This document shows, piece after piece, positions 9,006 through 51,154 of a stretch of DNA of 64,000 bases. Under the pieces are notes generated by a model. That model was given only the letters and a program-made list of their open reading frames with translations. It did not search any database and was not told the DNA's origin. This DNA is from a virus (taxonomy: Duplodnaviria; Heunggongvirae; Uroviricota; Caudoviricetes), in IMG/VR virus record IMGVR_UViG_3300047476_001238, positions 15,712 to 79,711 of that record; one strand, given 5' to 3'. Positions within the stretch are counted from its first letter, which is position 1. The number at the start of each line of letters is the position of its first letter. The translations under genes were made by a program, and so were the position numbers.

Positions 9006-9332
9006 TTAAACTCGAAAACTTTCTCCGCAACCGCAGCGGTCACGTTCGTTTGGGTTGATAAACTCGAAACCTTCGTTGAGTCCTTGCCGCTTGTAATCCA
9101 TAGTAAGACCATTTACGTAAGGCAAATCTCGACCGTTAACATATATTTTAACACCATTGCTGTCATAAGTCATCCAGTCTCTAGTGACCGGAGGAACATC
9201 TACATATTCTAACTTATAAGCAAGACCCGAGCACCCGGTAGTACGGACGCCAATCATTATGCCAGATCCACGACCACGTTTGATTAAGTGCTGTTGTACT
9301 TTTTTTGCTGCTTTTTCGGTGAGAGTAATCAT
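9006..9332 (-). CDS. HesB/IscA-type Fe-S cluster insertion protein
   Basis: 108 aa with a GCSGLAYKL core and the C-terminal CGCGESF signature of A-type carriers. Confidence 0.85.
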   Translation of the reverse strand: MITLTEKAAKKVQQHLIKRGRGSGIMIGVRTTGCSGLAYKLEYVDVPPVTRDWMTYDSNGVKIYVNGRDLPYVNGLTMDYKRQGLNEGFEFINPNERDRCGCGESFRV

Positions 9333-11056
9333 TATTCAAATCCTGCTAGCGTTTCTATTTTAACATTTAAACGATTGCCGTTTTTTACTAAATTGTTTTT
9401 TATAAATTCTGTTGGAGACATTACCCCAGGATCAAGATTTTTAGCAATTAGGGTGAGAAGTTTGTGATTACCTGCCCAAATTGATCCAGTAAGGAAAATA
9501 TAACAGGCGGTGATTGCTTCTTGTCCAAATAGCGGTCTGCCATCAACACCTTTGGTATAATAAAATTTATTGTGATTTGTCCAATTATCGTACAAATTGT
9601 CTTCAACTGCTTTGCACATTGGCGATTCTAAGAAATCATCAACTACCTGTTCCAAATTAAAAGTTGCAATTTTTTGACTTCTGAATTGAGTAAGAGCAGA
9701 ATAAATGTGTGATAGCACTGTCATTCTTACAAAATCTTTTTTACTAAAACTAATGCACGTTTCAGGAAATGTTGCATCAAAATAGTGATGTCCATTGAAA
9801 CGTTCGCTAGTGGTATAGGTAAATTTAAACTTTTCTTGATAAGTTTTATCTCTTGCTGCTGGGCTGGCTGGTAAAAGTTCGCTGATAAAAATTTGCAATT
9901 GTAAATCGTGTCTGCTTATTTCTTTAAGTGTTTCTCTCCAGCTTTCTACTGTTTGTCCCGGTAGTCCTTGAATCAATTGAATTTTTGAATGTAGATGTGG
10001 GTAAGCTTCTTTTAATTCTTGTATCATTGACAGATGCACATCCCACCCAACGTCGGGTCTATCAATATTTTCCAATACAGTTTTATTGATATCTTGTACT
10101 GAAATTGTAAATCCCGCAACATCGGTTAGCATATTACTTTTTGCCAATATGTGATAAATTTTTAAATTGTTTTCTTTTCTTAATTTACTAAAATTACCAT
10201 CAATTTTAAAACCAGCATTTTCAAAAATATTTTTATTGCCCATGTATTCAATCATGTCAATATCTTCTTGATACTGACCAACATTGGCATCTGACAGATA
10301 GATGTTCTTGACCTTTAACTCTTGAAACAAATCAATTTCATCTTTATAACTGTTTTTACGTCTAGTGGTTTTATTAGTTAGACCGCTATTCCAATCACAA
10401 AATGTACAACTGTAAGGACAACCCCTAGTCAAATCATAAGGAAGAACTACGCTTATCTGTTTGCTTTGCACATCCTTGATCATTGATGCAAATAATTCTT
10501 TATTGCTCAAGTATGGACTAACTGACAATTGTGGTACGTATTTAAAATCAGCCACAACAGTTTTATTTTTTACTTTATCCAGCCAGGCCACGTTTGAGGT
10601 ATTAAAAGCTATCAGCTTTTTGTTTTTTAAAATGCTTTCTACTATGTCAGCAAATGCCACTTCGCCTGCACCATATATGGCATAATCAGGGAATGTTTTT
10701 TTGGTAAAAAATTCTGGATCAATGTTTACATCAATGCTAGGACCGCCTGCTATAAAACAAATACTTGATGGAACCTTACTCTTGATTCTATTCAATTGAT
10801 CGCAGATAAAACTATCATTCCAAATGTAATGACTACTGCAAAACAGGTCTGGCTTTTCTTTCTCTAATAGACTTACCAACTCATCATCTGACATCTTTTT
10901 TTGTATCGGAAGCATCCAATCTAATTTTTCTCCGATTTCAGGACGATTTTGGTCGATCCATGTTTTTAAATACAGAGCTGCTACTCCCAAAAATAATAAT
11001 TTTTCGGCACTTTCTCTCAGAGTATCATTTGCATGATAAAATAAAACTTTAAGCAT
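9332..11056 (-). CDS. B12-binding-domain radical SAM enzyme (class B type)
   Basis: 574 aa. The N-terminal Rossmann-like block (ICFIAGGPSID) resembles a cobalamin-binding domain. A CPYSCTFC (Cx3Cx2C) radical SAM motif lies mid-protein. Confidence 0.75.
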   Translation of the reverse strand: MLKVLFYHANDTLRESAEKLLFLGVAALYLKTWIDQNRPEIGEKLDWMLPIQKKMSDDELVSLLEKEKPDLFCSSHYIWNDSFICDQLNRIKSKVPSSICFIAGGPSIDVNIDPEFFTKKTFPDYAIYGAGEVAFADIVESILKNKKLIAFNTSNVAWLDKVKNKTVVADFKYVPQLSVSPYLSNKELFASMIKDVQSKQISVVLPYDLTRGCPYSCTFCDWNSGLTNKTTRRKNSYKDEIDLFQELKVKNIYLSDANVGQYQEDIDMIEYMGNKNIFENAGFKIDGNFSKLRKENNLKIYHILAKSNMLTDVAGFTISVQDINKTVLENIDRPDVGWDVHLSMIQELKEAYPHLHSKIQLIQGLPGQTVESWRETLKEISRHDLQLQIFISELLPASPAARDKTYQEKFKFTYTTSERFNGHHYFDATFPETCISFSKKDFVRMTVLSHIYSALTQFRSQKIATFNLEQVVDDFLESPMCKAVEDNLYDNWTNHNKFYYTKGVDGRPLFGQEAITACYIFLTGSIWAGNHKLLTLIAKNLDPGVMSPTEFIKNNLVKNGNRLNVKIETLAGFE

Positions 11057-11429
11057 TTTGTTTATTCTTATAGTCTGCTAGTGCCGCTTTGATTGCATCT
11101 TCTGCTAATATAGAACAGTGAATTTTAACAGGCGGTAGTGCAAGTTCTTCTGCAATTTGAGTGTTTTGAATTGCTGCTGCTTCATCAAGACTCTTTCCCT
11201 TGAGCCACGTTGTGACCAATGATGAACTTGCGATTGCCGAACCGCAACCATAAGTCTTGAATTTGGCATCTGTAATCACATTGTTTTCTACTTGTATTTG
11301 TAATTGAAGTACATCTCCGCAAGCAGGAGCTCCTACTAGACCTGTTCCTACACTGGGATCATTTTTATCCAGTTTACCAACGTTTCTTGGATTTTCATAG
11401 TGATCCAAGACTTGACCTGAGTAAGCCAT
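11049..11429 (-). CDS. iscU: IscU/NifU-like Fe-S cluster scaffold
   Basis: 126 aa with the IscU signature GAPACGDV...YGCGSAIASSS...HCSILAEDA (three conserved Cys). Confidence 0.88.
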   Translation of the reverse strand: MAYSGQVLDHYENPRNVGKLDKNDPSVGTGLVGAPACGDVLQLQIQVENNVITDAKFKTYGCGSAIASSSLVTTWLKGKSLDEAAAIQNTQIAEELALPPVKIHCSILAEDAIKAALADYKNKQNA

Positions 11430-11458: not shown

Positions 11459-11872
11459 TTACGATCTTTTTGCAAGAGCAGACTTAGCCATTGAATCTAC
11501 TGTACGCTCAGGGGGTGTTCTAGGAGCGTTTGAGTCACCAATTGCGGCCAATTCTTCATCGTCGTCGGCAAACGGAGTTAGGTACACATACTTTACTCCA
11601 GTTGCGTCGTCTTTGATATCTTTAACAAGAGCTTTCAAAGATTCGTTGTTTGATAGAGCTTGATCTAATGTATCTAAATTAAATTGCGGATGCTGCATTT
11701 GCACTAGATTTATTAGTGAATCGGCCCGTACTCGTGGCACCGCGTGAGTGTCATGAGCACGGTTTCTCATAGTTTCAAGTATGTTCATCAGATCAAGAAT
11801 AGCCGGATCTGCTGCCTCGTCTTCGAGGATCTCATCAATAGCATCCTCAGTGATAATTTCACGAATACGCAT
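11459..11872 (-). CDS. hypothetical acidic protein (137 aa)
   Basis: ORF with acidic low-complexity termini. Confidence 0.45.
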   Translation of the reverse strand: MRIREIITEDAIDEILEDEAADPAILDLMNILETMRNRAHDTHAVPRVRADSLINLVQMQHPQFNLDTLDQALSNNESLKALVKDIKDDATGVKYVYLTPFADDDEELAAIGDSNAPRTPPERTVDSMAKSALAKRS

Positions 11873-12567
11873 TAACGTTTTTCTCTGCCTACAACATTTG
11901 GACCTGCTGCTGCACTAGTTGCTGCGAATTCGTCAGTATCAAGATCACTGCCCATATCTGCTGCTGGCATTTCAGTACCGTCAGGCATTGCACCAGGTGC
12001 TGCATCAGCTCCCATGCCCATACCCATTGGTTGCGCCACTTGTTCTCCTGCAAGAGCTCTAGCAGCGGTATCAGCTGTGCTTCGTGCCGAGCTTAACTGC
12101 TGGCTCATGTTAGCCAATAATGGCTCAACTGCGGCTTTAAATGCGTCAGCTTGTTCCATGCCAATTTGGTCACGAATAGTGTCTAGTAATGCAGGCATCT
12201 GCTCGTTTTGCATTTTGCTAACTTCTTCAAGCATGTCCTGGATACTGTCAACCATGTCCTTGGCAGCTAGAATAGCCTGGCTCTTGCCCATTTCGCTTTC
12301 TAGGATCAGTTGTTGTTTGTTTTCAACCATCCAGCGATGTAGGCCTTCACGTACCATTAGCAGCTCCATGTACTTAGGATTCTTTTCTGCTACGTGTACT
12401 CCGTGGCTGTGCTTGATTTTTTCAAGGCTCTCAGTTAGGCCACGTGCTAATACATATGCACGTTTGAAGTCTAAATTGGCGTAATCAATTTTAACGCCAA
12501 AACGGCTTTCCATTACTTTGTTAATTTTTTTTGCTGTGGGCTTGGTGCCCATTTCTGTTAGTCTCAT
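11872..12567 (-). CDS. hypothetical alpha-helical protein (231 aa), late-expressed, scaffold-like composition
   Basis: A CTAAATA motif (12591-12597) and an AGGAA RBS lie upstream. The protein is coiled-coil-like and Glu/Gln/Met-rich with a GMGMG tail. Confidence 0.5.
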   Translation of the reverse strand: MRLTEMGTKPTAKKINKVMESRFGVKIDYANLDFKRAYVLARGLTESLEKIKHSHGVHVAEKNPKYMELLMVREGLHRWMVENKQQLILESEMGKSQAILAAKDMVDSIQDMLEEVSKMQNEQMPALLDTIRDQIGMEQADAFKAAVEPLLANMSQQLSSARSTADTAARALAGEQVAQPMGMGMGADAAPGAMPDGTEMPAADMGSDLDTDEFAATSAAAGPNVVGREKR

Positions 12568-13090
12568 AGCTGTTGTTCCTAAAGTTAAAGTATTTAGCCG
12601 AAATTAAAGTTTTTTTCAAAATCTGTATTGAATCTTTACGCTGCATTCTGGCATCTAATAGTCTATTGTATGCAACGTCTTTTTTAAAATTATCCTGTTT
12701 TTTTCGTTGTAATGCTTTTTCGTAGTGTATAATATCAGTACTTAGTTTTCCTATTTTTTTATCAAGCTCTAATAGCGTATTGGCTTGAGGAAATTGTCCG
12801 CGTGTTTCATACAAACAATACAAAATCGCTGTAATTTTATCAACAAAATCATGAACGTATTTGTCATCAAATTGAGTCACTGTCCAACAATATGTGTGTT
12901 TACCAACAATTTGAAACGATCCAACAAAAAACCTGTAGTCCCCAATCGGAATAACTACAGGCTTTGATCTATATTTTGCTAGTTCTTGACGGGTCCATGA
13001 TTGAATATAATTTAGCCCAAATTCTGTAAATGCTGCTCTGGCATTGTCCAAATCAGACTTTCTTTTTGTAATAAATTTGCCCTTCGTCAT
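12521..13090 (-). CDS. hypothetical protein (189 aa)
   Basis: ORF overlapping both neighbours. No motif. Confidence 0.4.
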   Translation of the reverse strand: MTKGKFITKRKSDLDNARAAFTEFGLNYIQSWTRQELAKYRSKPVVIPIGDYRFFVGSFQIVGKHTYCWTVTQFDDKYVHDFVDKITAILYCLYETRGQFPQANTLLELDKKIGKLSTDIIHYEKALQRKKQDNFKKDVAYNRLLDARMQRKDSIQILKKTLISAKYFNFRNNSYETNRNGHQAHSKKN

Positions 13091-13259
13091 TTTTTCTATA
13101 TAGTATATCTTTGTTTACCAATTGGTTAGCTAATAATACTTCTCTTGGACTTAAATCTTTTTTTAATATTTCCGTTGATTCGCTAAATTTACCTAAGATG
13201 TCTGATTCTTCGTTGGTAATTGGTAATCTAACTTTATTTAATAATTCTATTATCTTCAT
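13053..13259 (-). CDS. hypothetical protein (68 aa)
   Basis: Small ORF with a plausible composition. Confidence 0.3.
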   Translation of the reverse strand: MKIIELLNKVRLPITNEESDILGKFSESTEILKKDLSPREVLLANQLVNKDILYRKNDEGQIYYKKKV

Positions 13260-13261
13260 TA

Positions 13262-13528
13262 TTATTTCAGGACAAGTTGTACAATAACCATAATTAAGCC
13301 TGTGAGCATTGCTACACCAAAAGCTGTGCCAATGGTAATCAACTGCCCGCTAGTTTTACTGGTAGCCTCGGCAGTAGATTCCGAAATTTTCGTGCGGATA
13401 ACTATGATGTTTTCTTCCATATTAGTCATACGCTGTTCTAGTTTGTCTAATTTATCTTCCAATGCCTTGTATCTTTCGGCGCATAAATCCACGTGCGCTC
13501 CAAGGCTTGTTCTTTCGCTTGCTGCCAT
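13262..13528 (-). CDS. hypothetical protein with a C-terminal transmembrane helix (88 aa)
   Basis: N-terminal coiled region followed by a hydrophobic C-terminal 25 aa. Confidence 0.45.
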   Translation of the reverse strand: MAASERTSLGAHVDLCAERYKALEDKLDKLEQRMTNMEENIIVIRTKISESTAEATSKTSGQLITIGTAFGVAMLTGLIMVIVQLVLK

Positions 13529-13612
13529 AGTACTCTTTCATAAAAATTAGAGGGTTCTGTGTTGTTGTCTAGATTGTGAGCCATAAAGAAAATGCCTTAA
13601 AATGCCAATGAT

Positions 13613-14065
13613 TTAAATTGTATTTAAGTTCATTCTGCCAGTTTTAAAGTATATGTTTTTTATAGCGCCATATGGATAAAAAATTGGTAATATAAACCTT
13701 GCAGTTTCATCTAGCCCACAAATTATAGGCACTTGAGCAAAATCTTTGTCCAATCCGCCAACCGGATCACGGTCTTCAAGAAATACATCTTCATGTTCGA
13801 CCCCAAAGCAGAAAATCCATGCTCGCTGCTTGCCATAGTACATCTCACCGAAGCCGCTGGTTTCATCGATGTCAAATTCTGCACAAATTGGTCCTTCAAT
13901 CAACTGTGGCTGTGATCTAAGACCTATTACCTGTAATACTGTTTCCCAATTTCTTTGTTGATCCCGTTGAACTTCTTGGCCAGGTCTGTGTCTGGTGATA
14001 CCAGTAGCAGTAATATCAACTAATGTTATGCCAGTATAAAATTTCATATAGATATTTATAGCCAT
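13613..14065 (-). CDS. hypothetical late protein (150 aa)
   Basis: TATAAATA (14053-14060) lies only 5 nt upstream of the ATG, on a T4 late-type promoter. Confidence 0.5.
   Translation of the reverse strand: MAINIYMKFYTGITLVDITATGITRHRPGQEVQRDQQRNWETVLQVIGLRSQPQLIEGPICAEFDIDETSGFGEMYYGKQRAWIFCFGVEHEDVFLEDRDPVGGLDKDFAQVPIICGLDETARFILPIFYPYGAIKNIYFKTGRMNLNTI
14053..14060 (-). promoter_or_regulatory. T4-type late promoter TATAAATA
   Basis: Exact octamer 5 nt upstream of the ATG at 14065. Confidence 0.5.
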
Positions 14066-14093
14066 AAAAAAAGCAGACCAAAGTCTGCTTTTT
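14066..14093. terminator. bidirectional rho-independent terminator (AGCAGAC-CAAA-GTCTGCT)
   Basis: Perfect 7 bp stem with flanking A and T runs. Nearly identical copy at 14516-14546. Confidence 0.65.
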
Positions 14094-14110
14094 GTTGTAA
14101 TTTTTAAAAA

Positions 14111-14461
14111 TTACGATACTACAAAACTAGTTCCGTCTGTCACAGTTGCGCTACCTAAGTTAACAGAACCTTTCTTGGTGCCAATAGCCTGTAGTGCTGT
14201 CTGTAGTGCGCTAGCTGCTGGGGCATTTACACCATCGCAGATAATGCTAATAATGCCGCTAGTAGCATGAGCAAAATATGCTAGTACTGGTGGGAATGCC
14301 TGAATGATTGCTTCATAAGCTTCGTTTGCTGCATCATCTTCTGATGACAAGTTAACGCCAGCATCAACTACATATAACTTAACGCTTTGACCAGGAACGA
14401 TCAAAGTTCCAGTTGTACCTGCAAAAAAGTAGCCTGCGCTACGATCTAAACCAATTGCCAT
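14111..14461 (-). CDS. small Ala/Gly/Thr-rich late protein A (116 aa), probable abundant virion-associated protein
   Basis: CATAAATA late-type promoter plus a strong AGGAGA RBS upstream, flanked by rho-independent terminators. Paralogous architecture with the next gene. Confidence 0.65.
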   Translation of the reverse strand: MAIGLDRSAGYFFAGTTGTLIVPGQSVKLYVVDAGVNLSSEDDAANEAYEAIIQAFPPVLAYFAHATSGIISIICDGVNAPAASALQTALQAIGTKKGSVNLGSATVTDGTSFVVS

Positions 14462-14515
14462 TTTATTTCTCCTAAATTATTTGCGTGTTATCGCATGTTA
14501 ATATTTATGCTGGTT
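14462..14515 (-). promoter_or_regulatory. late promoter (CATAAATA) plus conserved 5'UTR with AGGAGA RBS, copy 1 of a duplicated unit
   Basis: About 90% identical over roughly 55 nt to 15010-15061. Confidence 0.55.
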
Positions 14516-14546
14516 ATAAAAAAAGCAGACCGAAGTCTGCTTTTTA
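14516..14546. terminator. bidirectional rho-independent terminator (AGCAGAC-CGAA-GTCTGCT)
   Basis: Perfect stem flanked by A and T runs. Confidence 0.65.
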
Positions 14547-14562
14547 ATTAACTTAAATTTAA

Positions 14563-15009
14563 TTAAGCTAGTTTGATACCGCCAGTTGACGATACAGTAG
14601 CCAATGCTGGGAATACGTTGCCGTATGCACCAATGTTAGCACCAGCTGTACCATTGTGGGTTAGTGTGCGAATCTGAGCTTGTAGATCAGCATCTGACCA
14701 TGAGCTACGCTCTACTAGAACGCTTAGTTGTGCGCTTGAACCAGCTGCATCAACTTGGTATGCAATAACAGATGCGTTTGTAGAAATGGTCTTGATTAGG
14801 GTTTCTACTGCACCTACTAGACCTGCACCGCTTGGCTCGCCTAGTTCTGCTGCTAAGTTAGCAGTTGCACCTAAGGTACCAATCTTGATTGCACTGATAG
14901 GTGAAGCGATACCTGTATTAATGATCTTTGCATTTGCAAAAAATTGACCTGCATCAACGTTGTTTACACCAGCACTATTGCCGTGTACTTTTTGGACTCC
15001 AATTGCCAT
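14563..15009 (-). CDS. small Ala/Gly/Ser-rich late protein B (148 aa), paralogous unit to protein A
   Basis: Exact TATAAATA late promoter plus the same AGGAGAAATAAAATG leader as gene A. No Cys, low complexity. Confidence 0.65.
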   Translation of the reverse strand: MAIGVQKVHGNSAGVNNVDAGQFFANAKIINTGIASPISAIKIGTLGATANLAAELGEPSGAGLVGAVETLIKTISTNASVIAYQVDAAGSSAQLSVLVERSSWSDADLQAQIRTLTHNGTAGANIGAYGNVFPALATVSSTGGIKLA

Positions 15010-15061
15010 TTTATTTCTCCTTAATTATTTGCGTATTACCGCATGCTAATATTTATACCAA
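15010..15061 (-). promoter_or_regulatory. late promoter (TATAAATA at 15050-15057) plus conserved 5'UTR, copy 2
   Basis: Exact T4 late octamer and the same leader and RBS as copy 1. Confidence 0.6.
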
Positions 15062-16174
15062 TTAGTTCATTTTGGCGAAATTAGCGGCACTAAACACTTC
15101 TCTGTCCACGATTTTGACCAAACCTGTTGAGGTTGGAAACACAAAACCTTCGCCTGCGGGCTGTCCGTTTACATATTCTTCAATTCCTTGCACTTGCGAT
15201 GCCAGCTGTTTAGCCAGGTGTTGTTTAAAGGCGTAAATGCTGTTCCAGATTGCTTTGAGTCCAACATACCCAGGACTCTCAACTATTTGTCCGCTGGGGT
15301 CTTGTGCAAACAGTTTTCCAGTATAATTGTCGCCAGCTAGAGCGTTATACTGCACTTTGCTAACGTTTGCGGCTAACCATGTATGCAAAGGCTCGGTGGT
15401 TTGTCTAGTGATAAATTTATTAAAATATGTTTTGATTCTGTCTCTGGTGCTTTGTGGGATGGATCCCAACAGTTCATCTACTGCTGCGCCATATTTTTTT
15501 AGGGCTGCATCTGCTGCACGTTCCTGTTGTACCGGAGTTTTTAGTGTAAATTTATTACCCGCTGTGGGAGAAATAATAGCAATGCCGCCAGGCACGTTTG
15601 CTAGTCCCTTGCCGTTCCACTGCGTTGGTTGTCCACCTACACTGTCAAAATATTGATGCACTACGATTCCGCCAACAGATCCTGCAATAATCTTTCCTAG
15701 AGCACTGTTGGTTGCTATTCTGTATTCAACTAGATTGGGTTGGAAAACAAATTTTCCTTGAGTCGGCTGTAGCTGTCCTGCATAAAGCAAATCGCCCCAA
15801 TAGAAACCTGGTCCTTGTACTGCTTGATTTAGTGCAGGCCAAATTGTTTCTAATAGATTATAAAGGCTACCTCTGAGATTGCCTGATGCTTTTTGTGAGT
15901 CGTATCGTTTCCAATCTTCTACATTTTTTGCCAGGAAGCCGGCATCAAACATGTACTTGTCCATGATTGCCAACTGCCCATCACTGTCCCTACCAAAAAT
16001 AAGAGCAGGCTTACCGTCCCATTTGATGGTAAGGTTTCTTGGATTTGATATTACAGATTTTAATCCGGCTATTTGTTGAGCTGCGGCAGCACTACCAGAT
16101 AGTATTGCATCTTCAGGATGTGGAGTTCTGGGATTAGTAGCCTCCATTAGATATTCGACAAATTCAAAATACAT
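15062..16174 (-). CDS. hypothetical late protein (370 aa)
   Basis: Translationally coupled (TAATG) to the upstream late genes. No diagnostic motif beyond a KWDGK stretch. Confidence 0.55.
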   Translation of the reverse strand: MYFEFVEYLMEATNPRTPHPEDAILSGSAAAAQQIAGLKSVISNPRNLTIKWDGKPALIFGRDSDGQLAIMDKYMFDAGFLAKNVEDWKRYDSQKASGNLRGSLYNLLETIWPALNQAVQGPGFYWGDLLYAGQLQPTQGKFVFQPNLVEYRIATNSALGKIIAGSVGGIVVHQYFDSVGGQPTQWNGKGLANVPGGIAIISPTAGNKFTLKTPVQQERAADAALKKYGAAVDELLGSIPQSTRDRIKTYFNKFITRQTTEPLHTWLAANVSKVQYNALAGDNYTGKLFAQDPSGQIVESPGYVGLKAIWNSIYAFKQHLAKQLASQVQGIEEYVNGQPAGEGFVFPTSTGLVKIVDREVFSAANFAKMN

Positions 16175-16917
16175 TACGATAGTTTATCCGTGTATGTTCT
16201 GAACCAAGCAGCAGTGCCTGGAGCAGGCGCTGCCTCAGGTAATTGAATATCGCTCTTGGCCAGGGTTTCTCTAGCTGCTGCAATCAACTGTTCATAGTTG
16301 GGTCTTTTGCTAATAGCATCCAATATATCGTCAGCTGAATTTAACTTGGCAGCAGGAATGCCTGTTATTTTACTGAGTGTAGCTGGGCTTTTACCATCCT
16401 CGATTGTGGTATTAGTGACTCTATCAACCAGTCCGTGTTTATAACTCCATTTAAGTCCTGGGTGCAGGGCAGCAACAACACTGGCAAGAATAACATGACG
16501 ACTCATACCAGTCAGTTTGCTACCTTCTGCAGCACCACTCATACTAAATGCTTGCCACTTAGGGTCACCAAACATCAAGTCTGCTTGTACATATCCTTGA
16601 CCTAAACGACCGCCAATTGGTGCTTTGACATGTACGCTGTCACCGGACTTTTTGATATCTTTGGCGTCAACACCAGCTGATAATAATACTGCAACTAGTG
16701 TATCTTTATCTATACTGGTTTCGTCAACAGCTAGATCTAAATCACCTGAACTGGATTTTCTTCCTGTGGTGCCTAGCCATGTTTCTTCCGGAAATCTAAT
16801 TCCTGACACATGCTCGATCCATTTAATTGTTGCAGGAACGTCATCGCGATTGATTCTTTGTGTTAACGGTTGCCCATCGGGACTCTTGAAAATATTGCCG
16901 CCTTCGTTGATTTGCAT
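16174..16917 (-). CDS. hypothetical late protein (247 aa)
   Basis: Coupled TAATG junctions at both ends. Confidence 0.55.
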   Translation of the reverse strand: MQINEGGNIFKSPDGQPLTQRINRDDVPATIKWIEHVSGIRFPEETWLGTTGRKSSSGDLDLAVDETSIDKDTLVAVLLSAGVDAKDIKKSGDSVHVKAPIGGRLGQGYVQADLMFGDPKWQAFSMSGAAEGSKLTGMSRHVILASVVAALHPGLKWSYKHGLVDRVTNTTIEDGKSPATLSKITGIPAAKLNSADDILDAISKRPNYEQLIAAARETLAKSDIQLPEAAPAPGTAAWFRTYTDKLS

Positions 16918-17609
16918 TATAGTTTTCCTCGTTCTTTAGTTAGGAAAGTCTGCAATGCAGGAGTGACTTTTCTTGTGGTACCAAACGGATGGAACTCACC
17001 GTAATCATCCATTTCGAATCTTTTACCTTTGTACTGAATAACCAAAGGAACAGATTGTACTATTGATACATCAGGATGTAATGGTTCTGTTATAGATGGC
17101 TCCCCAACAGGCCCTTCATCACCAGGCATTACAATAGAAGAATCTGTAGTTCCTGGTTCTGCACTGGTGTCGTTATTACGTGGATCAAAAGTAAGTTGTC
17201 CATTTTGTTGTGCTAGATTTTCCAATGATGCTACAGATTGCGGGTCTACTATTTCCGATCCTTCGCTGTTTGCCCAAAAACCAGTTTTGTCTTTAGAATT
17301 TGGTTTAGCGGAATATTTGAAGTATCTACGACCGTCTTTGGTTTGAACTACCAACATTCTACCCGGTGGTACTCGATAACGTTTGATTTTCTCTTTCCTG
17401 TCATCGGTTGGCGCCTTTACCCATTGACTACCCGAGTCCGCACCCAGTCTGTCAGCTACTCCTTGCAGCATGTTTGTGAATGATCTGGGATTATTTTCAG
17501 TATTACCTGTATATTCTCCAGTTTCCGGATCTCGTTCATAATCTGTACCAAATTGATCTCTACGGCGTCTAGTTCCAAACGCTTCACTTACAATATCTCT
17601 AATCTTCAC
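16917..17609 (-). CDS. hypothetical late protein (230 aa), charged/Pro-rich
   Basis: Part of the late operon downstream of TATAAATA at 17866-17873. Confidence 0.5.
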   Translation of the reverse strand: MKIRDIVSEAFGTRRRRDQFGTDYERDPETGEYTGNTENNPRSFTNMLQGVADRLGADSGSQWVKAPTDDRKEKIKRYRVPPGRMLVVQTKDGRRYFKYSAKPNSKDKTGFWANSEGSEIVDPQSVASLENLAQQNGQLTFDPRNNDTSAEPGTTDSSIVMPGDEGPVGEPSITEPLHPDVSIVQSVPLVIQYKGKRFEMDDYGEFHPFGTTRKVTPALQTFLTKERGKL

Positions 17610-17847
17610 GCCTAAATCTCCTTACGCCGCGAGCAAATTTAGCAGGATCTTGGGCTCTAATACTATTGAGCAATCTACGCTCCAATTCAGCTGATTGTTC
17701 TGCATCATAGTTTTCTTTGATATAATTGATCAGATTGATAGCACCTTGTATCACATGGCTAGCACGACTTTCCACAAGATTTTCCCGATCTCGACTGACG
17801 GGCATGTGGGCTAATTCATCAAGAATACTGCGAGTACGCTTTTGCAA
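17599..17847 (-). CDS. hypothetical protein (82 aa), first gene of the late operon (TTG start)
   Basis: TTG start with a GGAG RBS and TATAAATA 20 nt upstream. Confidence 0.4.
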   Translation of the reverse strand: MQKRTRSILDELAHMPVSRDRENLVESRASHVIQGAINLINYIKENYDAEQSAELERRLLNSIRAQDPAKFARGVRRFRRED

Positions 17848-17865: not shown

Positions 17866-17873
17866 TATTTATA
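17866..17873 (-). promoter_or_regulatory. T4-type late promoter TATAAATA driving the 82/230/247/370-aa late operon
   Basis: Exact octamer about 20 nt upstream of the TTG start. Confidence 0.5.
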
Positions 17874-19032
17874 TTATAGAAGTTAATACTTCTTTCCACT
17901 CAGCATGCGTTTTTTCAAATTTAGTACTTCTTAAATTATCAAATTTATCAATTTGATCTAAGAATTTTTGGTGGGAAAATTCTTCTCGTATGGGTATCGA
18001 TTTAAGTAGCTGTAATAACATCGGATAGTCGGCGAACTTATTTCTTAATATATTATATTGGGTTTTATCCAAAAACTCTAATCTAAAATCATGCAGACCA
18101 GGATAAGGCAGTACCTTTTGAAAAATTAAATTTACAGGATCACCTAATCTATTTTCTTTGAGATTCATTTTATGCCAGTCAACCAATTGATCAAGATAAT
18201 AAAAATTCAAGTAGCTGTATACACAATTAACTTTAAACATATGATTAACCGGCATATTTTCTTTGTACCAAGTTAAATTCTCTGTTATTCTTTCCCAAGA
18301 AACCCCCGGTCTCTGATACTCGAATCTTTGTTCTATATCGTCAATACTAAAATATAATTCTACTAATCTACATTCAGACCACAAATTCAAAATTTCATCA
18401 GAAACTCGTACAGTTCCATTGGTGTTATAAAACACATGAACATCAGACAATCCCTTGACTTTTTTAATATTTTTTAAAAAAGTGATATGACTATCACTTA
18501 ACAATGGTTCGCCGCCACCGTGAAAATGCACATTGCGAATATTTTGTAGCTGATTGTCGGTTATTTCAATTTGATTATTTTTTTGATATTTGAATTTTGT
18601 TGCATCAGCTTCGGGAAATAATTTTTGATAGTCAGGCACCCAAGATGAACTATTACCGGGATTGCACACTAAACATTTTAAATTACACAAATTTCCAACG
18701 CTGTAGTCAATGCTAATCGGTCCGGGTGAATTGGTGTCAGAATCATTAAAAAAATTTTCATACAATTCAACCACACCTTGACGCCTACTTGTTAACCCCA
18801 ACGCTTCATCATTATAACAATTAATACATCCAGGAACTTTTTGATCTGATTCTATTAATTTTTTTATTCCGATATGCTTTTTGTTATTCCAAACTTTGGC
18901 TATGCTAATATTATCGTCTGTTCCTATATCACCAGTGTAAAAAGAACAAGGAGTATATTTGATTCTTCCGTTATGGGACCATATGGCCAAATTTTTATAC
19001 ACTTCATAACAAAAGTATTTGTTCTTTTTCAT
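17869..19032 (-). CDS. radical SAM enzyme with a SPASM/twitch-like C-terminal domain (paralog 1)
   Basis: CNLKCLVC (Cx3Cx2C) and a GGGEP SAM-binding motif, with additional Cys pairs N- and C-terminal. Similar layout to the ORF at 61470-62747. Confidence 0.8.
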   Translation of the reverse strand: MKKNKYFCYEVYKNLAIWSHNGRIKYTPCSFYTGDIGTDDNISIAKVWNNKKHIGIKKLIESDQKVPGCINCYNDEALGLTSRRQGVVELYENFFNDSDTNSPGPISIDYSVGNLCNLKCLVCNPGNSSSWVPDYQKLFPEADATKFKYQKNNQIEITDNQLQNIRNVHFHGGGEPLLSDSHITFLKNIKKVKGLSDVHVFYNTNGTVRVSDEILNLWSECRLVELYFSIDDIEQRFEYQRPGVSWERITENLTWYKENMPVNHMFKVNCVYSYLNFYYLDQLVDWHKMNLKENRLGDPVNLIFQKVLPYPGLHDFRLEFLDKTQYNILRNKFADYPMLLQLLKSIPIREEFSHQKFLDQIDKFDNLRSTKFEKTHAEWKEVLTSII

Positions 19033-19037
19033 GTATT

Positions 19038-20501
19038 TTATTCGGTTTTAGTTTTTAAGCTGGCAAGCATTTGTTTCAATTTTGTGCTATCTACATTGGC
19101 CTGTACTTTGCTTTCGATGTCAAATCCCGGCTTTGGTGTAGCTTTAATAAAGGGTGCAGCACCTGCACCTTCAGTTGTGGTAGTGCTTTTGGCTTTGATT
19201 TGATTCATTATGCTACCAGGCGCACTTGGACCACCAGGACGCCCATACCCGATTGTACCAGCCTCAGCTGCATCTTCACCAGGGTCAGTGATACGCATGG
19301 TTTCAATGTTGTATTCTAGATCTACTTTTTGACCCACACCGGTACTGCTTCGACTTTTCATACACTGGATTTGATAGCGTCCGCGCTCGCGCATGGCACG
19401 ACTTGTAAAAATACCAAACACATTATCTGCTGTGTTAATTTTACTGATACCACCTGAAATGTGACTGTGATCAAATTCAATTTCGTCAACTGCGCCTCGG
19501 TTCAGCTGACTTGCAGTGACCATGAGCACCCCCAATTCTTTACTCAAATTACGCAGTTCTTCTGATACATATTTGTCTTTCACAAACAAATCATTGGGAC
19601 TAACTTTGGCACTCACAGGCATCAGCAGATCTAAATAGTCGATCATCATAAAGTCAATTTTGCGCCCTGTTTGGATTTGGTATTCTTTTAGGAATGCTCT
19701 GATATCGTTGATATTGCTTTGTGCAGGCAATGCTTTGACTTGATAAGTGCCAGACTTTTTACCAACCATTTTAATTTTAAGTGCCGCGGTATCTTTGTCT
19801 TTGCGTATGTCTTTGGTACTCATGTTGGTCAACATGGCCGCTGTACGCAAACCTGTTAATTCTTGACTGAGTTCTAGTGTGATATAAACTCCATGAAGTC
19901 CTTGTTGTACCCAGTTAAGGGCAATGTTCATCATGACCAAGCTTTTACCTGAGCCCGATCCGCCAGCAAAAATATTAAGCTCACCTCTACTGAAACCACC
20001 ATACAACAGTTTGTCTACCTGTGGCCAGCCTGTGCTAACTTGCCCACCTGAATCAAAATATCTAGTAATCATGCCAGACGGATCTTCCCAGAAGTCCATG
20101 CCTAGATCTTTGGTAAGACTGATTTGTACAGCATCTTTGATTAGTTTTTCCACAGGATCAAAGTCGCCTTTTTCAATCATGTCTGCTGCTTGCAGAATAG
20201 CTCGTTCAAGTTCTTGTTTACGACTGAATCCTTCAAATTCTTTTAAAAACCAATCGTAGTGACCTTCTTTAAGGTCAGGAACTTCCCTGAGCTCTACACC
20301 TGTTGCTGCTTGAATCTGTTCTTTAGTAGGCAACGTTTTGTGATCATCGCTGTGTTTTTTGATAAACTTTGCAGCTTCTCTAAGACTGCGATCAAAATTT
20401 TCTGCATTGTAAATGTTCTGCACACGCACATATACTTCTGCGTCTTGCAGCATCATCTCCAGGAAAAGTTTTTGTATGTCGGGATTATAATCTTTTGTCA
20501 T
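19038..20501 (-). CDS. 41: DnaB-like replicative DNA helicase (T4 gp41 type)
   Basis: 487 aa with Walker A GGSGSGKS and DnaB-family H2-H4 motifs (IDYLDLL, TASQLNR). Confidence 0.88.
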   Translation of the reverse strand: MTKDYNPDIQKLFLEMMLQDAEVYVRVQNIYNAENFDRSLREAAKFIKKHSDDHKTLPTKEQIQAATGVELREVPDLKEGHYDWFLKEFEGFSRKQELERAILQAADMIEKGDFDPVEKLIKDAVQISLTKDLGMDFWEDPSGMITRYFDSGGQVSTGWPQVDKLLYGGFSRGELNIFAGGSGSGKSLVMMNIALNWVQQGLHGVYITLELSQELTGLRTAAMLTNMSTKDIRKDKDTAALKIKMVGKKSGTYQVKALPAQSNINDIRAFLKEYQIQTGRKIDFMMIDYLDLLMPVSAKVSPNDLFVKDKYVSEELRNLSKELGVLMVTASQLNRGAVDEIEFDHSHISGGISKINTADNVFGIFTSRAMRERGRYQIQCMKSRSSTGVGQKVDLEYNIETMRITDPGEDAAEAGTIGYGRPGGPSAPGSIMNQIKAKSTTTTEGAGAAPFIKATPKPGFDIESKVQANVDSTKLKQMLASLKTKTE

Positions 20502-21451
20502 GACTTGGGACAGTTAAATGTACAAGCTTTTGGCTTGATTGTTTCGATATTGTTGTAAAAATCTTTTAAATTGTTGATAACTTGCGATAACGTTGTTTTA
20601 CTTATTGCAAATTTTTCTTTTTGTTTATAAAAATCACTCTCGTAATAGAATCTATGATCGCCCATCCAGCAACAGGGCAAATAAAAACCCGAAGCTGAAA
20701 TGAAATGCATAGAATGAGTAATTTTGCAAACAGGGTTTATGTCATTTTTGTTGTTGCTGTTTTTCCATTGTATGATACTATCATTTCGATTTCCATCAAA
20801 GCTGCCGTTAGACAGTATTCCAGTTTCTGTTTTATAACCGGTATCAACGTATCGTTTAGGATTCAACCAATCGTTAACATCGTCCCAACGATCACTATTG
20901 TTTAAAACAAACTCGTTGATTCCTAAATTTTTGCTCAACTGTTGAGCTGTTTCGATGTCATTGATATTATAACTAAACACAATAAATTTCCAAACAGTCT
21001 TTGCTCGACTCTTGGTCATTATGCTTATACCACGTTCAATGCTGGGCCAATCTGCATTTACTCTATACTGTGTAAAATTCTCAGGAACGCCATCAATGCT
21101 GAAATTCACAACATCTGTTTCGTCAAGAATTTCTGCCAGTTGCTCCCAGGTTGCATTGCTGGCGTAGCTGCCGTTTGTGGTAATAATTATATTGCATCCT
21201 GCAGATTTAAAATATTTTATCAATGGAATTAGGTCAGGGTAATACAGTGGATCTCCGTAATTTCCATTCAATGCAACGAGCTTTCCTTTAAGATCTATAT
21301 CTAAAAAATTTTTTAGATCTTCAAAATTTAAATTTAAATTTTTCCATTTTTTTGGAAACTTTTTAATAAACTCTGTTCGCGAACATCGCGGGCATTTTAA
21401 GGTGCAAATGTTAGTTGGTTCAAGATGAATGCCACGAATAGATTCAAGCAT
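20498..21451 (-). CDS. radical SAM enzyme with a SPASM/twitch-like domain
   Basis: N-terminal CTLKCPRC (Cx3Cx2C) at residue 16, and a C-terminal Cys cluster (C..CC..C..C). Lies between the helicase and primase genes. Confidence 0.8.
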   Translation of the reverse strand: MLESIRGIHLEPTNICTLKCPRCSRTEFIKKFPKKWKNLNLNFEDLKNFLDIDLKGKLVALNGNYGDPLYYPDLIPLIKYFKSAGCNIIITTNGSYASNATWEQLAEILDETDVVNFSIDGVPENFTQYRVNADWPSIERGISIMTKSRAKTVWKFIVFSYNINDIETAQQLSKNLGINEFVLNNSDRWDDVNDWLNPKRYVDTGYKTETGILSNGSFDGNRNDSIIQWKNSNNKNDINPVCKITHSMHFISASGFYLPCCWMGDHRFYYESDFYKQKEKFAISKTTLSQVINNLKDFYNNIETIKPKACTFNCPKS

Positions 21452-43595: not shown

Positions 43596-43625
43596 GAATC
43601 CTCAGTAATTGTTGAATAAATGTAT

Positions 43626-43775
43626 TTATTCGCCTGCTTTTGGGGCGATAAATTGCTTGATATGACTCATTGCTTTTCGGGCAGTATCAAATACGTACTC
43701 CACGGTTTCGTCCTCAAGCTGGACGGTGACTACAAAACCATTTGCGACTTTTCTAATTTCAATTGATTCAAACAT
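43626..43775 (-). CDS. small hypothetical protein (49 aa)
   Basis: AAGGAA RBS 5 nt upstream of the ATG and a TTGACT-N17-TAAAAT promoter further upstream. Not in the supplied ORF track because it is under 60 aa. Confidence 0.35.
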   Translation of the reverse strand: MFESIEIRKVANGFVVTVQLEDETVEYVFDTARKAMSHIKQFIAPKAGE

Positions 43776-44803: not shown

Positions 44804-46210
44804 TTAGAAATTCAATTGACTACGGAATATTACTGCTCTATCGCCATTTACTCGACTACCCGAACTGCCTACTAAACCATCAAACTTGGTGTCAACATAG
44901 TTTACCATAAAACGTAGGTTATCAGTAGCGAACCAAGTGATGCCGTAAGTTGTGGCAGTGGCACGATTGGTTTTGCCAGTTGCCACAGCAATATCGCCGG
45001 CGTCAAATTCGCTGAAACGCACACCAACTTGCCATGCCCCGCGACCACCTTTGTCCAGTGGATTAGCAGGTTTAACTGCGCTAAACACACCATCCTTGTA
45101 GTTGTAGCTTTCGCCGGTTAGATTGTACAAGGCCTGTACATAATAACCTTTAATTTCTTGATTGCTACCTGTGGTAGGATCATATTTGAAATTAAATTGT
45201 TCACCTTGAAGTTTAAAAGCATTGTATGCAAAGGCTGCTTCTAGACCTTGACGAGTTCTGACAGTATCACCACTTAGTGCAGAACCTGTAAAGAAAGCAC
45301 TCTGTGATCTGCTCTCTGTGCGACTGCTAGCTGGTGCTACACCACCTTTGATATCACCTACACTGTATGCAGCACCTAGGTGTGCGATGTATGCCTTGCT
45401 GCCAGTAAGCTCAGCAATATTGGTTGTGACGCGACCAATATAGTCAAACCCATCGTTTGCGGCATCTTTGTTGCCACGACCGCGACTCACTGCCACAGCA
45501 TAGGTTAAACCAGTTTTAGGCACACCGTGCAGCATGAATCCTGTTTCCTTGCCAGGAATGAATTCACCTTCAACTTGACCTACTAGGCTACGTTCCATAA
45601 AATCAATATTGTTAGAACTGGTCAATTGCTCTAAGCTGAATGGCATCTTGAATAAACCAAACTGAAATTGCAGTTCAGGATTGGCTGCATAATTTACCCA
45701 GGCTACATCCATAAGGCTCGATGTTGAACTGAAGCCAACGTCGTTGCCAAAATTACCAACAAATTCGTATTTGAAATCCTTCTGGAATTGTCCACGTACA
45801 CCAAATCTAGCACGACGAACTTCTGCTAGGTTCTGATACGAATCTGTGGTTTGACCTGTACCGTAAGACGGGGAGTATTGACGATAGTCCATATGTAATC
45901 GACCTGTAAGCTGAATGGTATTGTTGCCATCTTTGCTTTTGAGCCCGATTCCGTTTTCGGTGACTGCACCATCGCTGGCCCTGGCTTGTCTGTATTTGAC
46001 TGACTCACTAACATCTTTGTCGATTCTTTGTTCTGCAAATCTTTTGTTTTCTGCTTTGTCTTTGTATTCTTCAACTTTGACATCATATTCCTTTTGTGTC
46101 AAGATACCTTTTTCACGTAAGATATTTAACGTGTCGATGTACTCGTCTGCGTATGCCGGCACACTAAATGCCAAACTTAACGCCAATGCAATTTTTGTAA
46201 ATGTTTTCAT
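44804..46210 (-). CDS. phosphate-selective porin O/P family outer membrane protein
   Basis: Signal peptide MKTFTKIALALSLAFSVPAYA, Lys/Arg-rich repetitive beta-strand pattern, C-terminal aromatic ...SQLNF. Length 468 aa is typical of OprO/OprP. Confidence 0.75.
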   Translation of the reverse strand: MKTFTKIALALSLAFSVPAYADEYIDTLNILREKGILTQKEYDVKVEEYKDKAENKRFAEQRIDKDVSESVKYRQARASDGAVTENGIGLKSKDGNNTIQLTGRLHMDYRQYSPSYGTGQTTDSYQNLAEVRRARFGVRGQFQKDFKYEFVGNFGNDVGFSSTSSLMDVAWVNYAANPELQFQFGLFKMPFSLEQLTSSNNIDFMERSLVGQVEGEFIPGKETGFMLHGVPKTGLTYAVAVSRGRGNKDAANDGFDYIGRVTTNIAELTGSKAYIAHLGAAYSVGDIKGGVAPASSRTESRSQSAFFTGSALSGDTVRTRQGLEAAFAYNAFKLQGEQFNFKYDPTTGSNQEIKGYYVQALYNLTGESYNYKDGVFSAVKPANPLDKGGRGAWQVGVRFSEFDAGDIAVATGKTNRATATTYGITWFATDNLRFMVNYVDTKFDGLVGSSGSRVNGDRAVIFRSQLNF

Positions 46211-46219
46211 TACTGTTCC

Positions 46220-47246
46220 TTATTTCCAAATTGGGTTGCCATCGGGACCTTTTAGATCACGTTTCCAACTGTCCTGATTTAATTTTATAACCGCCTGTGG
46301 CAAGTGAACGTATTCTAGTTCTTCACTCATCTTGGCTCCGTTCTTCCAACTCCAATCAAAGAATTTAAGAACAGCACGACCTGTTAGCGCATCTGCCTGA
46401 GACTTGTGCATGATAATAAAACTTGCACCTGTTGCTGGCCAAGCATCTCGGCCTGTCTGCCAGGTTAGTAGCAAATACATACCAGGAGCATTGACCCAGT
46501 CTGCGCCGGCTGCTGCTGCTTTGAATGTTGAGTCATCTGGTGATACAAAATTGCCATCGCGATTTTTTAGCTGTGCAAAAGTAATTTTATTTCTTTTAGC
46601 GAATGCATATTCTACATAACCAAATGCACCTTTGATACGCTGCACTTGTACAGCAACGCCTTCGTTGCCTTTACCGCCTACACCCACTGGCCATTTGACA
46701 GCAGTACCTTCGCCAACACCTTTAGCAAAATCAGCACTGGCTTTGCTTAAGAAGTTAGTCCAGATAAATGTAGTGCCTGAACCATCTGCACGATGAATTA
46801 CCACGATAGGAATAGCAGGCATACTAACACCTGGGTTCAAGTCTGCGATTGCTTTGTCATTCCACTTAGTGATTTTACCAAGATGAATGTTTGCAACGAT
46901 TTCGGGGGTTAACTTCAATTGACCTGGCGCAATACCGTCTAAGTTAAAAACTGGAACTACTCCGCCAATGATTGCCGGGAATTGCATTAGGCCTTCTTTT
47001 TCAAGTTCTTCTAATTTTAGTGGCATATCACTAGCACCAAAGTCTACTGTTTTTCCTTTGATTTGCTTGATACCGCCGCCTGATCCAATTGATTGATAAT
47101 TGAGACCAATACCTGTTGCTGCTTTGTATGCCTCAGCCCACTTGGCATAGATAGGAAAAGGGAATGTTGCTCCTGCTCCTGTTAATTCTGCTGCTCCGGC
47201 ATATCCGGTTAGTGCAACGAATACAATTGCTAATAGTTTTTTCACT
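46220..47246 (-). CDS. pstS: phosphate ABC transporter substrate-binding protein
   Basis: GTG start with a GGAG RBS, a signal peptide, and PstS blocks TGAGATFPFPIY, SIGSGGG, DFGASD, ADGSGTTF. Confidence 0.88.
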
Positions 47247-47321
47247 CTATAATCTCCATTTAATGTGCATTGCACAATAATATTTAAACATAGCAAGATT
47301 ACAAGCGTGTTACAAAACCAT

Positions 47322-47348
47322 AAAAAAAGGCACAAAAGTGCCTTTTTT
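47322..47348. terminator. bidirectional rho-independent terminator (GGCAC-AAAA-GTGCC)
   Basis: Perfect hairpin flanked by an A-run and a T-run, between pstS and the OMP gene. Confidence 0.6.
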
Positions 47349-47368
47349 GATTAAAATATTTAATCTAA

Positions 47369-47929
47369 TTAGAAACTACGTGTATAACTCACACGCCATT
47401 GATTAGTTTCTGTGTCGCCGTAGCTACGTGCATAACGAACACCCACTGAATCTTTAGGTGTGACTGCATAGTTCAAGCCAAAGTGTGGTCTAGTGGTTTG
47501 AAAATTGTTAGCTGTGTCGTATGCATTACGATATCTAACACCCACATCACCACTCAGTGAGCCGGCGATAGGAAATCTTGTACCAACGATAACATTGTAC
47601 TGTGCAAAGGTGTCGTTTGATTTCACAATTTGTCCGGTACGTAGACTGACATATGGCTTTAGGGTACCAAGATCAAACAATCTAGTGACACGAGCCTCTA
47701 GTCCGTTTGTAATTGCGCCATCACCTAGTTCGGCTTGACTGGTACGCATCTGTACAGAAAAATCCCAAGTTTTGTCTACTGTCATACCAGGTACAATTGC
47801 GTAGGCATAGTTTTTGGCACTGGTGTTGACATTTTCTTCGTCGTAGTATTCGAAGCGAACGTATCCTTTGGTCTCAGCCTGCGCTGCACCAGCAATTAAT
47901 AATGCAAATAATAGTAAAAATTTTTTCAT
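47369..47929 (-). CDS. small outer membrane beta-barrel protein (OmpW/OmpA-like, 8-10 strands)
   Basis: Signal peptide MKKFLLLFALLIAGAAQA, alternating hydrophobic beta pattern, and a C-terminal ...YTRSF. Confidence 0.6.
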   Translation of the reverse strand: MKKFLLLFALLIAGAAQAETKGYVRFEYYDEENVNTSAKNYAYAIVPGMTVDKTWDFSVQMRTSQAELGDGAITNGLEARVTRLFDLGTLKPYVSLRTGQIVKSNDTFAQYNVIVGTRFPIAGSLSGDVGVRYRNAYDTANNFQTTRPHFGLNYAVTPKDSVGVRYARSYGDTETNQWRVSYTRSF

Positions 47930-47957
47930 TGTTTTCTCCTTAAAAAAAATTGTTTAA

Positions 47958-48797: not shown

Positions 48798-48808
48798 TTT
48801 TTTTCTCC

Positions 48809-51103: not shown

Positions 51104-51154
51104 GTCAATACTTAGTATAATAAATACTCTACAAATTGATTTTCAAGGAACTAT

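Follow-up and report, generated by a model that had tools for sequence, protein, structure and literature searches.

We describe two compact gene cassettes in a 64-kb stretch of viral DNA (hereafter the window: all 64,000 nucleotides (nt) from positions 15,712 to 79,711 of the IMG/VR record IMGVR_UViG_3300047476_001238, Caudoviricetes), each carrying one small protein gene: gene B and, downstream of it, gene A. We consider it probable, with room for doubt, that these are tandem monocistronic cassettes for late, high-level expression, followed by a third gene with a leaderless mRNA; that a hairpin at the 5′ end of each cassette transcript stabilises the mRNA; and that the products are paralogous proteins abundant in the virion. 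Each cassette would work as a chain, in which a T4-type late box sets a transcription start six bases further on, and the transcript opens with the 5′ hairpin, continues into an open leader with a Shine-Dalgarno site, and ends at a terminator of its own. The 5′-terminal hairpin would most likely shield the mRNA from 5′-end-dependent decay, the open A/U-rich ribosome site would maximise initiation, and the private terminator would insulate each cassette. A and B most likely act together as abundant virion structural proteins, and such joint action would explain retention of the pair. The cassettes, genes A and B, the third gene and their signals all lie on the minus strand of the window (Table 1).

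A first-pass annotation of the window had described duplicated promoter, leader and terminator units at this locus, and the repeats are real. Positions 14451-14508 and 14999-15056 form a direct repeat of 58 nt, 93% identical, that spans the leader and the first four codons; the repeat finder also pairs the terminators, 14064-14093 with 14516-14545 (30 nt, 97% identical). In the 64 kb there are exactly two copies of the 27-nt leader core CGCAAATAATTWAGGAGAAATAAAATG, against 0 expected, and likewise exactly two of the hairpin AGCAGAC-N4-GTCTGCT, against 0.2 expected. Both copies of the latter have the parts of an intrinsic terminator, namely six G/C-rich pairs extended by A-U pairs, a UUCG or UUUG loop and seven U, and they fold at -16.8 kcal/mol (z -5.4) after gene B and -14.3 kcal/mol (z -4.2) after gene A. 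Rfam returned only sub-threshold small RNA (sRNA) matches, driven by the terminator hairpins. Among them is the enterobacterial family STnc370, at 40 bits where the gathering score is 54, on the plus strand at 14029-14101 and 14475-14552; these plus-strand matches most likely reflect only the bidirectional hairpin and its T-run. A sigma-70-like site on the plus strand (14226-14254) could in principle drive an antisense RNA over the gene A ribosome site; an antisense sRNA from it was dropped as a candidate, the sigma-70 scan being at chance (22 sites against 22.6 expected).

Each cassette opens with a NATAAATA box and has no conserved -35 or other upstream element. With 6 copies in the window against 4.7 expected, the 8-mer TATAAATA shows no over-representation, and the heptamer ATAAATA is about threefold under-represented: it has 11 copies there, where the 20 other permutations of its letters average 33. 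Of the 11 copies, six stand just upstream of a gene start in the right orientation, compared with 12% of controls (Fisher p = 9e-4). A word that is rare overall yet enriched at gene starts shows the pattern expected of a promoter word avoided elsewhere, and in both the box itself and this marking of genes the locus agrees with T4-type late promoters. A T4 late promoter consists of the box alone, TATAAATA at -13 to -6 (PMC2988020); with its first base at -13, the start is the sixth base after the box, and by this analogy transcription of genes B and A would begin at the two A residues given as +1 in Table 1. The base at the predicted +1 is A in all 140 of the 140 leaders that match the pattern. 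The RaK2-like phage CBB has ATAAATA before 35 structural genes and encodes a gp55-like sigma factor (PMC5259590). Like the T4 late promoters and the ATAAATA elements of CBB and GAP32, the boxes described here are identical to that box or read NATAAATA, have no -35 element and stand upstream of structural genes, and the avoidance of ATAAATA elsewhere, with enrichment before genes, holds for the window too. Unlike in T4, dependence on a gp55-like sigma factor, timing and start site are matters of analogy in the present phage, and position -13 of the box is free in the cassette family (T, C, G or A). By the same analogy the cassettes would be transcribed late. Further ATAAATA boxes before gene starts lie on the minus strand at 17866-17873 (an 82-aa virion protein), 43623-43629 (an epimerase/dehydratase) and 50270-50277, the last before a 38-aa open reading frame (ORF) that precedes a TctA-like gene; at 50276, too, 5 nt separate the box from an ATG. 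On the plus strand, boxes at 51120-51126 and 58994-59000 precede two ORFs. After none of these boxes does the TGCG/CGCA hairpin follow.

Under the T4 geometry the predicted mRNA starts with one unpaired A, followed at once by a TGCG-loop-CGCA stem of 4-5 bp. This hairpin is the sole structure predicted in the leader (-5.3 kcal/mol for gene B, -3.9 kcal/mol for gene A); the Shine-Dalgarno site, (U)AAGGAG or AGGAG 7 nt before the AUG, and the AUG itself are unpaired in an A/U-rich unstructured leader. A 5′ hairpin is also found in the leader of T7 gene 10, which is used in pET vectors. Base-pairing at the 5′ terminus is an established guard against 5′-end-dependent mRNA decay (reviewed in PMC3997798). 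Our leaders resemble the stabilisers of ompA, papA and T7 gene 10 in having the hairpin at the extreme predicted 5′ end behind 1 unpaired nt, an unstructured A/U-rich ribosome site with a strong Shine-Dalgarno sequence, a terminator of their own, and a structural gene of very high predicted expression; unlike those stabilisers, the cassette stem is short (4-5 bp, about -4 to -5 kcal/mol) and near-invariant, and does not covary freely. A two-codon mini-ORF in the leader (AUG CGN UAA) was rejected, as it is unconserved and its AUG is absent from 17 leaders.

The cassette is widespread among relatives. We sampled IMG/VR through the proteins, which gave 80 loci, and through the leader pattern, which gave 118 stretches. 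A tandem pair is the rule, with two copies at 87 loci, one at 17 and three at 2, so that copy number does vary in relatives; the pair consists of B and A, while more distant lineages pair B with a second B-like gene instead. Among 153 distinct family genes with full flanks, 151 have an [A/C]TAAATA box, 151 a Shine-Dalgarno site 4-10 nt before the ATG and 150 a terminator, and in 140 the hairpin starts exactly at the seventh base after the box, that is, with its stem at +2 if the start follows T4 geometry. The consensus reads nATAAATA-ttaac-A-TGCG-loop-CGCA-AAtaaTTaAGGAgAAatAAA-ATG-gCA-ATc-GGA, with leaders of 28-37 nt and one 11-nt exception. The leaders of relatives are 84-92% identical to the window leader, compared with 50-80% for B coding DNA. 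The first-pass annotation's claim of strong purifying selection on the expression signals is thus borne out: the cassette recurs at about 150 distinct family genes, and its leader is more conserved than the coding sequence. Terminator stems vary by lineage with pairing kept (GCAGAC/GTCTGC, GCAGC/GCTGC, GGCAGA/TCTGCC, GCGTAC/GTACGC, GCACT/AGTGC).

The hairpin is a property of the family as a whole. Stems of at least 4 bp (or of 3 G-C pairs) starting at +2 or +3 occur in 117 of 135 distinct leaders, compared with 8% of shuffles, and enclose loops of 3-7 nt, often GNRA. Divergent lineages have alternative stems (TGCA/TGCA, GCGC/GCGT, GCGCA/TGCGT, ACGC/GCGT), each in 1-3 distinct leaders; most stems among the 135 are invariant, so that support from covariation is thin. 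The leader is strictly specific to this gene family. Scanning IMG/VR with the leader pattern gave 155 downstream ORFs. A hidden Markov model (HMM) places 148 of them in the family; of the rest, 2 encode truncated A-type proteins and 5 encode small look-alike proteins of 104-110 aa whose N-termini are similar. On contigs of 289 kb and 357 kb there are no leader sites beyond the tandem two. A scan of contigs from 185,579 species genomes found no relative, and therefore gives no clue to the host. At two of the sampled loci (L071, 2142-2166; L072, 3450-3474) the paralogues are 24 nt apart, the gap holds only a Shine-Dalgarno site (TAATGTAACCAATATAGGAGAATAACATG), and neither a first terminator nor a second promoter with its hairpin is present; judged by this layout, one transcript probably covers both genes.

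Near-identity of the non-coding parts could also reflect recent duplication, or ongoing gene conversion between the cassettes, without selection on the signals. The two window leaders are 90% identical, and leaders of B and A are more alike within genomes (identity 0.814) than between genomes (0.792), a difference reached by 0 of 5000 permutations. The gap is only 2 points, however, and so marginal an excess indicates that similarity is kept by selection on a common optimum and not by recent duplication or strong conversion. The A and B proteins are only about 21% identical, the same leader stands before orthologues with 50-60% coding identity, and it is present in single-copy genomes as well. 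We accordingly dropped gene conversion as the main cause of leader identity, and consider this explanation very unlikely; on these comparisons, the non-coding near-identity is best read as selection on a shared optimal cassette.

Genes A and B are, as judged by profile comparison, ancient paralogues. Pairwise BLASTP finds nothing between them (E = 53), whereas hhalign aligns them over 96 columns at 21% identity (92% probability, E 6e-7), and window A scores 33 bits (E 2e-12) against a broad family HMM built from 62 B-type representatives and window B. The earlier statement that the two proteins share, composition aside, only their MAIG start therefore holds at the level of BLASTP but is too narrow, as an AGxFFA motif is shared too and kinship is evident between profiles. 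An exhaustive HMMER search of representatives with the B alignment (A2) returned 92 family clusters at 50% identity. The best 120 of the 474 B homologues are 67-100% identical to it; all homologues of B and of A (95 for the latter) are labelled ‘hypothetical’ and come from metagenomes or viral contigs, and a cluster look-up likewise returned ‘hypothetical protein’.

Two other features ascribed to the products by the first-pass annotation, low-complexity composition and rapid divergence under host or immune pressure, do not survive. In a SEG-like test no 12-residue window of A or B has an entropy of 2.2 bits or less. Orthologues are 67-97% identical, with a mean column identity of 79% in the B family and 59% in the A family, and the median pairwise ratio of nonsynonymous to synonymous substitution rates (dN/dS), taken over 42 genomes, stands at 0.21 (B), 0.11 (A) and 0.10 (third gene), with no pair above 0.5. 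Low dN/dS and high orthologue identity mean that the products are under purifying selection and are therefore not fast-diverging; diversifying selection on A and B was dropped. The combination of conserved signals with diverged A and B is thus, as far as sequence comparison goes, the mark of an ancient duplication and not of an arms race.

Codon usage points to strong expression. Among 80 window genes ranked by effective number of codons (ENC), B is first (38.4) and A fourth (42.8); ATA, GCG, GGG, ACG and CTG are absent and AAC, GGT, GTA and CTA are favoured, and synonymous divergence is lowest in B. Together with the Shine-Dalgarno sites, the A/U-rich leaders and the cassettes’ own terminators, this codon bias supports very high expression of A and B, which we infer rather than observe.

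AlphaFold models of the two proteins are of moderate confidence (predicted local distance difference test scores of 65 and 60). In both, the N-terminal 20-33 residues are modelled with low confidence yet are highly conserved (residues 1-33 in B), and this arm is probably disordered on its own; after it both models show a ferredoxin-like beta-alpha-beta-beta-alpha-beta domain of the same topology. Neither Pfam nor PHROG yielded a significant match to A, B or the third gene, PDB profile searches had no hit below E 0.3, and A, B and a family consensus all went unmatched when run by tblastn against 50,697 phage genomes, a search in which the low-complexity filter may have masked the consensus. Neither protein is like the described decoration families Soc, Hoc, gpD, Dec and pb10 in sequence or fold. 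They resemble T4 Soc, lambda gpD and T5 pb10 in being small and, by inference, abundant and late-expressed, and their conserved low-confidence N-terminal arm resembles the arm of lambda gpD. The gpD arm becomes ordered on the capsid.

The link to the virion comes from the Pseudomonas jumbo phage PA5oct, whose gp251 (EST35_0233, RefSeq PQE65_gp251, 100 aa) is the sole cultured homologue that we found. It matches the broad HMM at 28 bits (E 2e-8) among 170 ORFs, which were all those from four cultured jumbo-phage loci, in an alignment spanning nearly the whole domain; in Serratia phage BF, Vibrio phage 2.275.O and Sinorhizobium phage Phosso, the syntenic stretch has no family member by this HMM. 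Compared singly by hhalign, gp251 matches weakly (10% against A2, 0.2% against alignment A1), and homology is clear only with the broader HMM. In PA5oct, gp251 is followed by gp250, a homologue of the third gene of the window, so that position and sequence agree. Both genes bear the annotation ‘structural protein, ESI-MS/MS’ (electrospray ionisation tandem mass spectrometry), as do most of those around them, and both products are among the 93 PA5oct virion proteins (PMC7318152). PA5oct gp251 thus resembles A and B in matching the family HMM, in size, in its place within a syntenic block ahead of the gp250/third-gene homologue, in having its own promoter-like TATAAAT element and its own terminator, and by its detection in virions; it differs in being single-copy, in a leader without the TGCG/CGCA hairpin, and in lying beyond BLAST range. 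Genes A and B belong by profile match and genomic position to this gp251-like family, which is unnamed and has no Pfam or PHROG entry, and in which virion detection concerns the PA5oct member only. The earlier proposal that A and B are abundant virion proteins is made plausible by a homologue detected by mass spectrometry, a syntenic structural block and the strongest codon bias in the window.

PA5oct gp251 and gp250 (12934-13819 in the PA5oct locus), which belong to different families, share the N-terminal sequence M-x-Q-K-(V/I)-H-G. It resembles the start of gene B, MAIGVQKVHG, and the gp250 homologue in the window is without that N-terminal extension. The shared sequence may be a common assembly or targeting peptide.

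That homologue is the third gene, whose similarity to gp250 is detectable by BLASTP (E 2e-7, 31% identity over 111 aa). Its start is the ATG at 14047, where the conserved N-terminus of relatives begins; the start at 14065 chosen by the ORF caller is unconserved. This ATG follows a TATAAATA box after 5 nt and has no Shine-Dalgarno site. With the box at this distance the predicted +1 is the A of the AUG, so the late mRNA of the third gene is, by analogy with T4, apparently leaderless. The geometry of box and ATG is kept in nearly all related loci (L002-L081), with spacers of 4-8 nt, whereas PA5oct gp250 has a 31-nt leader.

Several points weigh against the account given here. The predicted +1 is extrapolated from T4, and timing and abundance are likewise carried over to this phage. 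No homologue of gp55, gp33 or gp45 is known here, the window having been covered unsystematically for gp55 and the sequence outside it not searched. The association with virions goes back to one distant homologue (28 bits), and 7 of the 93 proteins in the PA5oct proteome are enzymes without relation to the virion (PMC7318152), which leaves room for carry-over of an abundant protein. On that basis A and B could be made late and in abundance yet stay outside the virion, for instance as assembly chaperones, scaffolds or host-directed factors, and they are indeed unlike any known capsid, tail or decoration family. Their neighbours in the window and in PA5oct, on the other hand, are mostly detected by mass spectrometry or assigned to PHROG ‘virion structural’ families, and the conserved low-confidence N-terminal arm fits a protein that completes its fold in assembly; we regard a non-virion role as unlikely, while giving it some weight, and favour virion proteins.

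The remaining points concern the hairpin. It is weak (-3.9 to -5.3 kcal/mol), with energy z-scores that are non-significant; none of the other predicted late promoters in the window has any hairpin; 17 leaders carry only GCGAAAGC, which is unfolded as RNA in the model; and the stem is near-invariant, TGCG(T)/(A)CGCA in 108 of 135 leaders, which argues for sequence-specific recognition over a generic stabiliser. The hairpin may instead be an operator for a phage RNA-binding protein, possibly A or B themselves, that couples synthesis of the paralogues to assembly or fixes their ratio. Family specificity of the leader, together with other promoters that are free of the hairpin, makes a dedicated operator a live alternative. 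An operator would also account for a stem held constant while the loop is free, for a leader found only before the A/B family, at two sites per genome of about 300 kb, and for one that outlasts recognisable protein similarity; the ferredoxin-like fold is, besides, common to RNA recognition motif and S6 RNA binders. Set against this, the loops vary in length and sequence (3-7 nt), some lineages have other stems or only GCGAAAGC, A and B are acidic to neutral (pI 4.3 and 6.0), and their fold matches are generic. We judge an operator to be rather unlikely. A more elaborate form, in which a family-specific operator makes A/B synthesis self-limiting and stoichiometric and, with the leaderless third gene, completes a three-gene late module, seems to us distinctly unlikely; if it were true, translation would be graded by leader type, and an operator would have co-evolved with its gene beyond detectable protein similarity.

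The inverted repeat might act as DNA, as a late-promoter-proximal element, a binding site or a mini-hairpin in the opened bubble. Its distance from the box is fixed, the stem always lying 6 nt after NATAAATA, its primary sequence is invariant, and the GCGAAAGC variant is not a stable RNA hairpin in the folding model. From the mini-hairpin work of Hirao, GCGAAAGC is reportedly an unusually stable DNA hairpin, which we counted in favour of a DNA element. The variable spacing of the half-sites, however, is a poor fit to a dimeric DNA binder, compensatory stem variants exist, and T4 late promoters need the box only (PMC2988020). An action as DNA thus appears very unlikely indeed, and we retain the 5′ stabiliser as the probable function of the hairpin.

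Table 1. Coordinates of the two cassettes and the third gene in the 64-kb window, from the upstream end
Feature	Position	Strand	Remarks
Stop codon of DUF6267 gene	15062	-	Upstream neighbour of gene B promoter box
Late-promoter-like box TATAAATA, gene B	15057-15050	-	Directly after the DUF6267 stop, without intervening terminator
Predicted leader, gene B	15044-15010	-	35 nt; predicted +1 A 15044, from T4 geometry
Leader stem TGCG, gene B	15043-15040	-	
Leader loop GTAATA, gene B	15039-15034	-	
Leader stem CGCA, gene B	15033-15030	-	Followed by A/U-rich spacer
Shine-Dalgarno TAAGGAG, gene B	15023-15017	-	
Gene B	15009-14563	-	148 aa; pI (isoelectric point) 6.0; 474 homologues; ENC rank 1/80
Terminator, gene B	14545-14518	-	AAAAA-GCAGAC-UUCG-GUCUGC-UUUUUUU; bidirectional in form
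Late-promoter-like box CATAAATA, gene A	14509-14502	-	
Predicted leader, gene A	14496-14462	-	35 nt; predicted +1 A 14496, from T4 geometry
Leader stem TGCG, gene A	14495-14492	-	
Leader loop ATAACA, gene A	14491-14486	-	
Leader stem CGCA, gene A	14485-14482	-	
Shine-Dalgarno AGGAG, gene A	14473-14469	-	
Gene A	14461-14111	-	116 aa; pI 4.3; 95 homologues; ENC rank 4/80
Terminator, gene A	14093-14066	-	AAAAA-GCAGAC-UUUG-GUCUGC-UUUUUUU
Third TATAAATA box	14060-14053	-	5 nt upstream of third gene ATG
Third gene	14047-13613	-	144 aa; PA5oct gp250 homologue; dN/dS 0.10

The window also encodes a ribonucleotide reductase, a UvsW-like helicase, a RecA/UvsX-like protein, a DnaB helicase, a Toprim primase, three radical-SAM proteins, IscU, a PstS-like protein, a phosphate porin and a TctA transporter, and the genes neighbouring the cassettes match PHROG ‘virion structural protein’ families. 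Megablast of the region against the 50,697 phage genomes gave no near match. The 82-aa ORF at 17599-17847 belongs to PHROG 11854, ‘virion structural protein’ (E 6e-17), and by tblastn matches PA5oct-like Pseudomonas jumbo phages as well as jumbo phages of Klebsiella, Serratia, Yersinia, Erwinia, Xanthomonas, Vibrio and Sinorhizobium. The order primase, DnaB, 82-aa protein, run of structural genes is common to the window, PA5oct and Serratia phage BF. Gene order and the matches of the 82-aa protein together suggest that the window comes from an uncultured relative of the PA5oct-type jumbo-phage assemblage, distantly related to PA5oct and the RaK2-like myoviruses and probably of jumbo size.

Some neighbouring genes depart from this shared order. 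Radical-SAM genes on the minus strand at 17869-19032, in the gap between DnaB and the virion block, and at 20498-21451, between primase and DnaB, are insertions, and PA5oct and Serratia phage BF have no gene at either position; an IscU-like gene (11049-11429) and a third radical-SAM-like ORF (9332-11056) lie near them. A host-like transport cluster on the minus strand (44804-50101) comprises a phosphate-selective porin O/P, a PstS-like phosphate-binding protein and a TctA-family transporter, an unusually large auxiliary uptake set for a phage. N-termini of the form M-x-[I/L]-x-E (MRIRE, MRLTE, MKIIE, MQINE) occur in only 4 of 86 window ORFs, all on the minus strand and within 5.5 kb around the cassettes (11459-11872, 11872-12567, 13053-13259 and 16174-16917), and PA5oct gp254 begins similarly with MRLDE. 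(L/I)xE is the cleavage motif of the T4 prohead protease, and T4 internal proteins carry N-terminal capsid-targeting peptides. By analogy, the group suggests a cluster of processed head-internal proteins.

The components described here are all of known kinds: a late promoter, a leader with a 5′ hairpin, an intrinsic terminator and paralogous structural proteins. Two things are slightly out of the ordinary, namely that the leader, which is family-specific, outlasts the recognisable similarity of the gene behind it, and that the start codon of the adjacent gene coincides with its predicted transcription start. The arrangement is tidy but ordinary, and overturns nothing in current understanding. 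The work nevertheless gives a first, indirect functional label to a so far unannotated family, seen here only on viral and metagenomic contigs and comprising about 90 clusters at 50% identity and hundreds of metagenomic sequences: it is probably an abundant virion component, usually paired. The leader offers a ready-made cassette for high expression, and a marker by which such phages may be recognised in metagenomes.

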